A stretch of DNA of 64,000 bases from assembly GCA_965197425.1 (NCBI GenBank), contig CBDANC010000013.1, positions 192,001-256,000 of the forward strand, in the 5' to 3' direction. Positions 38,615 to 38,738 of this stretch are shown here, piece after piece. This DNA comes from Bdellovibrionales bacterium. GTDB taxonomy: Bacteria; Bdellovibrionota; Bdellovibrionia; Bdellovibrionales; JAUICD01. Every line of letters starts with the position of its first letter. The stretch's first letter is position 1. The notes below the pieces were generated by a model. It was not told where the DNA came from. It saw only the letters and a program-made list of their open reading frames with translations, and searched no databases. The position numbers were made by a program, and so were the translations under genes.

Positions 38615-38738
38615 ACCTAGCAAATAAACTGACTTGTTAGTTTTTTGCTAGGTGAATTACGTTTTGACACAGCCACTTAAAGCCCAAAATGTAATAACTT
38701 TTTTTGCCAAACGGGTTGCCCAGCTTTGTATCGTGTAA
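38615..38738 (-). repeat. Structured intergenic element (ACACG..AGCTGGGCAACC motif + hairpin with AACAAGTC loop)
   Basis: Shares motif and hairpin architecture with 61103-61231. Confidence 0.7.

Follow-up and report, generated by a model that had tools for sequence, protein, structure and literature searches.

A mobile family of imperfect hairpins resembling REP/BIME elements in a reduced Bdellovibrionales genome

The repeat among described systems

REP sequences are made up of a conserved motif and a bulged hairpin, with tandem copies that are alike within a locus and a copy number that varies between strains, as outlined in the excerpts of PMC8266576 and PMC3333891 used here. According to the same excerpts, the tnpA-REP gene has been lost in some E. 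coli strains (PMC3333891), and the way in which REP-like repeats spread is stated to be unresolved (PMC8266576, PMC3333891). Two further groups are relevant: the IS91 family, which is described in the excerpt of PMC13181058 as making no target duplication, and repeats that become fused to open reading frames, which are well known, as the excerpt of PMC3184786 puts it.

The repeat family considered here is represented at two loci, mcm and hemB, of the window, a 64,000-nucleotide stretch of DNA from a Bdellovibrionales bacterium whose genome (G000) comprises 1.60 Mb in 15 contigs. In our best reading the family works most like REP/BIME, although it is not a REP in the strict sense. As in the REP/BIME described in those excerpts, its units are imperfect hairpins in high copy number, mostly located between genes, with a conserved motif on the 5' side and with conserved mismatches or a bulge; as in E. 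coli and Pseudomonas, they make up tandem mosaics in which the copies of one locus resemble each other and strains differ in copy number. REP/BIME can also outlive their TnpA-REP (RAYT) gene, again according to these excerpts, and a possible loss of the transposase of the present family would be similar. On the other hand, the conserved 5' (head) motif is a 9-12-nt word and not the GTAG tetranucleotide at the hairpin foot, the hairpins of 60-100 nt have a fixed-length leader and tail, and the arrays run head to tail instead of forming REP-iREP pairs (both orientations occur in just 3 of 175 motif-bearing regions). Moreover, neither G000 nor the congeneric genome G001 has a Y1 HUH (tnpA-REP) gene flanked by the repeat.

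The family shares with IS91/IS801 and their one-ended derivatives, as presented in the excerpts of PMC13181058 and PMC3189936, the lack of terminal inverted repeats (TIR), two unlike ends, what looks like a short target preference by one end and, as a model, junction-bearing single-strand intermediates. It differs from that description in that no Y2 transposase was found in G000 or G001, in the 8-14-nt repeats at its empty sites, and in its units of just 90-170 nt. Like the pneumococcal BOX, Neisseria REP2 and other ORF-fusing repeats (excerpts of PMC3184786 and PMC3049150), it is modular and is found fused to gene starts and frames; BOX is listed there as MITE-like and attributed to an IS, whereas the present family is devoid of TIR, the comparison being one of descriptions and not of sequences. 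Small size, absence of coding capacity, stem-loops and the occurrence of both empty and filled sites recall the bacterial MITEs of the PMC3184786 excerpt, unlike which the family has neither TIR nor a constant target duplication. No DEDD recombinase gene, as in IS110/bridge-RNA elements, accompanies it and, in contrast to cobalamin and other riboswitches, it matches no curated RNA family, is tied to no single gene class and is not conserved across relatives.

Integron attC sites are sequence-variable hairpins with conserved irregularities, one favoured strand, head-to-tail arrays and a junction at the hairpin foot, and the present family has all of these traits. However, the complementary AAC/GTT cores that attC sites carry at the hairpin foot are absent from the unit listings, neither genome has a tyrosine recombinase, and the units are dispersed, with no cassette genes between them. 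No description of the family was found in the openly accessible literature that was searched. What the present analysis adds is the geometry shared with the congener, the boundary repeats that match the junction, the tests for TIR and target duplication, the strand bias and a negative enzyme survey.

Architecture of the family and its copies at mcm and hemB

The initial annotation described two copies, at mcm and hemB, whereas the strict definition of the family gives 124 loci with 225 right ends throughout the genome, amounting to 23.7 kb or about 1.5% of G000; the 10-nt core of the head motif alone has 106 exact matches. A looser set with 143 placed loci, which is used below only where indicated, includes a few false positives, one of them being the in-gene locus at C15:66.5 kb. 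A unit starts with a leader of about 32 nt, which comes in several types; the head motif and an imperfect hairpin follow, and the 7-nt tail motif and two T's close it. The upstream junction could be recognised in 50 of 111 units, and in 47 of these its distance to the head motif is 31-33 nt. Among the 122 of 175 regions listed, units of 90-170 nt are often arranged in head-to-tail arrays and mosaics, and a 64-66-nt module is nested in many hairpins; truncated leaders are numerous among the 48 units listed. Comparison of the unit ends gave no indication of TIR either in G000 (7.40 versus 7.27 of 15 positions, 111 units) or in G001 (7.72 versus 7.49 of 15, 94 units). The family is young.

A different short tandem palindromic repeat is also present in G000 (a 13-mer with 45 copies, e.g. 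at C6:14493-14535 and C6:39201-39274), and it is at times inserted into the hairpin elements, as at C12:93.9 kb. The small contigs C2, C3, C5, C8 and C9 are repeat-rich and unlike the rest of the assembly, possibly as host contamination in the bin; C9 carries a transposase-like ORF that, by eye, has a eukaryotic look.

Both hairpins are present where the initial annotation had placed them; in each, AACAAGTC sits on a 5-bp inner stem, followed outwards by a single 3' bulge and an outer stem. The 12-nt head motif that precedes them (38725-38714 on the minus strand, 61113-61124 on the plus strand) has two matches in the window against 0.10 expected. The arrangement at mcm proved to be different from that described. 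The gene (methylmalonyl-CoA mutase N-terminal domain, 37055..38587, minus strand, ATG at 38587) is located downstream of the biotin carboxylase and biotin carrier (BCCP) genes, and the BCCP-mcm gap measures 188 nt in G000 versus 30 nt in G001. Reading along the minus strand, a first unit begins with a type-C leader (38724..38757), starting at a junction-like two-T site 19 nt past the BCCP stop codon, and continues with the family-conserved head motif (38714..38725) and a truncated 5' arm followed by a short locus-specific stretch (38683..38713). A second, type-E unit contributes a leader and core (38654..38682; 25 pattern matches genome-wide), the imperfect hairpin with its AACAAGTC cap (at 38638-38631) and single 3' bulge (38615..38653), and a longer tail (38591..38614) with the 7-nt tail motif at 38599-38593 and the two-T junction at 38592-38591, 3 nt ahead of the mcm ATG. 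The mcm copy is therefore a mosaic that combines the head motif of a truncated unit with the hairpin of a second type, which has a core of its own, whereas motif and stem are colinear within one unit at hemB. The additional hairpin noted earlier between motif and stem has one arm within 38683..38713, the only place where this arm occurs; as it accompanies just one of the 25 type-E matches, it is local to mcm and not a feature of the family.

The first codons of mcm (38587-38575, minus strand) resemble a type-B leader and differ from the N-terminus in G001, which suggests either a target that matched the leader or a start supplied by the element. An ankyrin-repeat protein gene (35651-36937, minus strand; all profile matches below the cut-off) lies directly 3' of mcm.

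At hemB, which encodes porphobilinogen synthase and is present in a single copy (61091..62191, plus strand), the element had been placed at the 5' end of the gene; it actually lies within the first codons. The insertion in G000 totals 163 nt and is bounded on both sides by an 8-nt word similar to the tail of the element itself. The left copy of this word (61077..61084) represents native hemB codons 3-6 and is followed by a type-B leader with the head motif (61085..61124), in which ATGs at 61091 and 61100 are in the hemB frame, by the hairpin (61125..61231; AACAAGTC cap at 61209-61216), which is broken by the nested 64-66-nt module (61139-61202) that is also present in many other copies, and by the tail (61232..61247), with the 7-nt tail motif at 61239-61245 and the right copy of the repeat at 61240-61247. 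The element entered after codon 5 and frameshifted the native start: the native ATG (61069) has been put out of frame and is followed by a stop after 21 codons, while the frame derived from the element extends the N-terminus by up to 49 residues. Judged from the reading frames, the element-derived start would be the one in use. The congener hemB runs straight across the insertion site, which is thus empty there.

The surroundings of the copies are not restricted to any gene class. Of the 143 placed loci of the looser set, 87 have a downstream gene running in the same direction as the copy and 56 one running in the opposite direction. Seventeen genes have their start after a copy, and the 12 that could be named (acnA, smc, pckA, rpoC, fusA, rpsD, thiI, fsa/tal, rsmE, cmk and those for a CusA-family RND pump and a PolC-type exonuclease) include no tetrapyrrole or B12 genes. 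Compared with 300 matched intergenic draws, terminal ends lie more often at gene boundaries: 12 of 95 are followed within 12 nt by the ATG of a conserved gene (9 of them at exactly +3) versus 1.1 expected, and 20 of 95 meet an opposite-strand stop codon versus 3.4 expected. We infer that this placement fits a T-rich target and the purging of in-gene insertions, and not gene-class regulation. Of the two outcomes between which the initial annotation proposed to decide, gene-class-specific hits as in a riboswitch or dispersed copies as in REP, the latter was obtained.

Pairing, relatives and empty sites

The loop had been regarded as invariant and the stems as covarying. The first of these views does not hold for the family, since AACAAGTC caps only 24 of 111 units (15 of 52 short units); as a word it is not even enriched in the window (5 matches versus 2.6 expected), and the cap itself comprises a 2-nt loop, two further pairs and an A.C mismatch, other caps having 3-nt loops. 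The second view holds. For the 18 distinct types of stem that enclose AACAAGTC, pairing is found at 3.94 of 5 positions versus 2.85 with shuffled partners, and none of 5000 shuffles was as high as 3.94; an alignment of 10 rows has changes on both arms at 6 of 8 pairs, with pairing in 82.5% of cells versus 71.3%. The count of further pair types, on the other hand, was not above shuffles (7 versus 8.2), and neither the shuffles nor the alignment removes the relatedness of the copies.

Isolated mismatches also differ between strands. On the strand read in the initial annotation, A.C exceeds G.T by 25:9 in the short G000 units and 56:12 in G001, whereas the long G000 type has no bias (8:8), and these counts are not independent because the copies share ancestry. 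As DNA, the fold of the opposite strand is the better one in 40 of 52 short G000, 23 of 41 long G000 (23 versus 16) and 74 of 88 G001 units, and as RNA in 48 of 52, 41 of 41 and 86 of 88, respectively, a difference in RNA energy that is inflated by G-U pairing. The hairpin of the second mcm unit likewise folds better and further on the plus (antisense) strand, with a z of -4.13 versus -2.68 for the sense strand, while in the hemB copy with its insert the reverse is the case and the sense strand (z of -2.27) folds better. Overall, there is moderate support, weakened by shared ancestry, for the strand opposite to that described earlier being the favoured fold.

The search for further copies that had been proposed with the two hairpins yielded them not only genome-wide but also, as a sister family, in the same-genus genome G001, where word counting revealed 82 loci with 123 units. 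These agree with the G000 units in the tail motif and have either an identical or a variant head motif; their hairpins are longer and the junction-to-head spacing is mostly 32-33 nt. In addition, 12 cross-species blastn matches at E<1e-3 connect the copies of the two genomes. Simpler searches gave less: the exact 16-nt pattern was found in 0 of 40 relatives, a blastn-type search with the hemB copy returned no real match in G001-G004, and a gapped head-tail pattern had single matches in 2 of 60 relatives, like its reversed control, missing G001 because the hairpins there are longer than the gap allowed. The junction pattern gave 4, 11 and 0 single matches in GTDB, JGI metagenome and IMG/VR collections, none with a family-like hairpin; we read these as chance, noting that the collections may leave out records near the source genome. 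The repeat comprises homologous sister families at the genus level, in G000 and one close relative.

The element is mobile, as empty sites exist both in the congener and in close strains. In G001 the sites at mcm, hemB and C13:71.6 kb are empty; of 145 loci, 66 have flanks alignable on both sides in G001, and at the 29 where the G001 gap is under 70 nt, the gaps are far shorter than in G000. Strain contigs of runs X3 and X5, from two studies, omit 125 nt at the C13:71.6-kb copy, and X3 additionally is without one 98-nt unit, the absence being precise between 14-nt direct repeats. The strains diverge from G000 by about 3-5%, the reads were compared over one element-rich region, and each strain joint is a single contig with a depth of 3-5.

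The repeats that bound these insertions are not uniform. Their length is 8 nt on the tail side at hemB, 11 nt on the leader side at C13:71.6 kb, where the repeated word is the start of type-C leaders at other loci, and 14 nt across the junction in X3; each matches the element's own junction, but length and side vary. Accordingly, no target-site duplication of constant length was found among the 91 terminal units and the three empty sites. The flanks of the 91 terminal units match slightly better than shuffled ones (mean of 5.42 versus 5.06 of 10, p=0.0005), a weak duplication signal; a few units have 9-10/10, and just 8 of 91 reach at least 8/10. As to an IS91-type target word, the two commonest 4-mers past the tail account for 66 of 95 terminal ends, yet duplications occur at all three empty sites. 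On the left side, the flank matches the junction 8-mer at 7/8 or better in 10 of 48 units versus 0.2% of control positions, to which we give little weight, as several of these matches are relic tails of neighbouring units.

In the course of this work we also noted genes for a protein of about 97 aa resembling the 23S rRNA-IVP (four-helix bundle, PF05635), with 20 tblastn matches in G000 at 57-100% identity, located in the window (16710-17084, minus strand), at L123:945-1235 and at about 18 other places. These genes are mostly flanked by 7-8-nt tandem repeats and are absent from G001, and several of them abut hairpin elements. They look like a second mobile family without a transposase. In one of them, at C13:84.6-85.0 kb, a type-E piece and the 64-66-nt module interrupt the gene, with short matches at both ends and not at a two-T junction.

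Mobilising enzyme and competing explanations

Both genomes are near-complete, G001 being a single contig, and both were searched for enzymes that could move the repeat. Neither contains a Y1 transposase (PF01797, E<=1), a Y2 transposase (PF04986, E<=0.1; no control genome passed this search either, so its sensitivity is not established), IS110 proteins (PF02371, PF01548), a reverse transcriptase (PF00078) or a tyrosine recombinase (PF00589, found in 14 of 14 control genomes). In seven relatives that do have Y1 genes, the gene flanks are unrelated to the repeat and bear other palindromes. The two genomes share 32 H-x-H proteins, with a further 5 in G000 only; a scan of 21 of the shared ones revealed no HUH family (16 belonged to unrelated families and 5 had no Pfam match), and inspection by eye of the genes that have units next to them in both genomes (29 pairs) or that lie between units gave no transposase-like candidate. 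One DDE_Tnp_1 protein and an IS1595-type fragment were detected in G000 but not in G001. The two genomes have just one family of site-specific recombinases in common, represented in each by a single syntenic serine resolvase.

Several other genes were noticed in these searches. Two Cas1 genes (L128, L129) accompany 36 copies of a CRISPR-like repeat in G001, with no Cas1 in G000, and thus cannot serve both genomes. The single DDE_Tnp_1 gene (L120:1357-3000, minus strand) has, by eye, its own 13-nt inverted ends. Three tandem proteins of 530-580 aa (L125:759-2393, minus strand, and two paralogues) show many HTH_Tnp_1-like repeats and signal-peptide-like N-termini. The PF00589 search detected no XerC/D-type gene in either genome of about 1.6 Mb, and the serine resolvase (L127:1240-1959, minus strand; L126:1465-2157, plus strand), which has a conserved palindrome upstream and a neighbour that we take to be a dCTP-deaminase-like gene, may possibly stand in for chromosome dimer resolution.

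Based on our observations, we suggest that the family is a small non-coding repeat of genus-level distribution that moves as single-stranded DNA and inserts at junction-like sites by means of an HUH-type nicking enzyme, a proposal whose chances we consider about even. The strand opposite to that of the initial annotation would fold into the recognised hairpin, and an HUH-type (REP/IS200/IS91-like) enzyme, since lost or acting transiently in trans, would nick near the hairpin foot and release a junction-containing circle or strand. The target would be chosen by pairing with bases that flank the junction, leaving repeats of 0-14 nt on the matching side; existing copies would offer the best match, so that arrays and mosaics would build up. 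Most insertions inside genes would be purged, so that the remaining copies directly adjoin start and stop codons, and the copy in hemB would owe its survival to the in-frame start that it carries. The 8-14-nt repeats at the three empty sites speak against this best reading, as the excerpt of PMC13181058 describes the IS91 family without target duplication. So do the negative Y1 and Y2 searches, the long G000 type with its even mismatch counts and small preference in DNA folding, and the sense-strand fold of the hemB copy; the IVP-like gene with its off-junction inserts would fit microhomology repair by the host too.

It is possible, though clearly less probable, that host replication or repair inserts copies of the hairpin modules at breaks or stalled forks, guided by microhomology at both ends, with slippage or unequal exchange between junction repeats making the arrays grow and shrink. 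Such a process would need none of the Y1, Y2, IS110, reverse transcriptase or tyrosine recombinase genes that were missing from the two near-complete genomes, and it is favoured by the changing side and length of the boundary repeats, by the unit precisely absent between 14-nt repeats in X3 and by the IVP-like gene, whose two inserts have short matches at both ends and lie off the junction. It leaves unexplained, however, why head and tail motifs, the 31-33-nt spacing and a compensated bulged hairpin should be kept in two species whose copies differ widely in other respects, and why the preference for 4-mers after the tail is so narrow. The reading as a classical MITE, mobilised by a DDE transposase and making a target duplication of about 9 bp, is improbable and largely refuted: G000 has the DDE_Tnp_1 protein and the IS1595-type fragment, and the mean flank match is above shuffled with a few units at 9-10/10, but variable boundary repeats that match the element's own ends, the lack of TIR and the scarcity of well-matching flanks despite the young age of the family argue against it, and the DDE gene has no G001 homologue and inverted ends that, by eye, differ from those of the element. 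We regard as very improbable that the serine resolvase recombines the junction around its central two-base core. It is the recombinase family that both genomes share, and a 2-bp core is typical of serine recombinases; the gene, however, is single-copy, with its own palindrome and no array beside it, the junction has no inverted arms, and a duplex-acting enzyme is not expected to select a long variable hairpin.

Two explanations place the function of the repeat in RNA. A family of small RNAs or terminators produced from the better-folding strand and spread secondarily has little probability: that strand does fold better as RNA and copies crowd gene ends, but the energy difference owes part of its size to G-U pairing, the T-runs are inside the stem and not after it, and the copies vary between strains, are absent at orthologous sites and have no Rfam match. 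That the element acts upstream of mcm and hemB as a riboswitch-like cis-regulatory RNA for B12 or haem, the first of the two interpretations in the initial annotation, is hardly credible. A hairpin does form on the mRNA strand, with the unit ending 3 nt before the mcm ATG, and could locally affect translation. Nevertheless, the 124 loci occur in both orientations beside unrelated, mixed housekeeping genes, the 5' ends of mcm and hemB in G001 are without the element, the cap is variable, the opposite strand usually folds better, and comparison with Rfam at gathering scores, which had been proposed as a check, gave two tRNA matches in the window and none at either locus. The riboswitch is therefore unsupported and a B12- or haem-sensing role unlikely, whereas the second interpretation, a REP-like element that collects nested inserts, agrees with a repeat that is dispersed, modular, nested, tandem and strain-polymorphic.

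These results remove a riboswitch candidate and put in its place a young family of repeats, which makes up 1.5% of a reduced 1.6-Mb genome, fits neither the MITE nor the REP definition and, as at hemB, appears to rewrite gene starts. A bolder interpretation, which we consider doubtful, is that of a self-aiming miniature mobile DNA that is still spreading, by junction-paired targeting, in reduced genomes with no recognisable transposase for it, is driven by an unrecognised host enzyme and has replaced the start of the sole hemB. Empty and filled alleles in close strains, combined with junction-matching repeats and no obvious transposase, make the family a usable test case for the spread of REP-like repeats, and its value would be greater still if the mobiliser turned out to be an unrecognised host protein.
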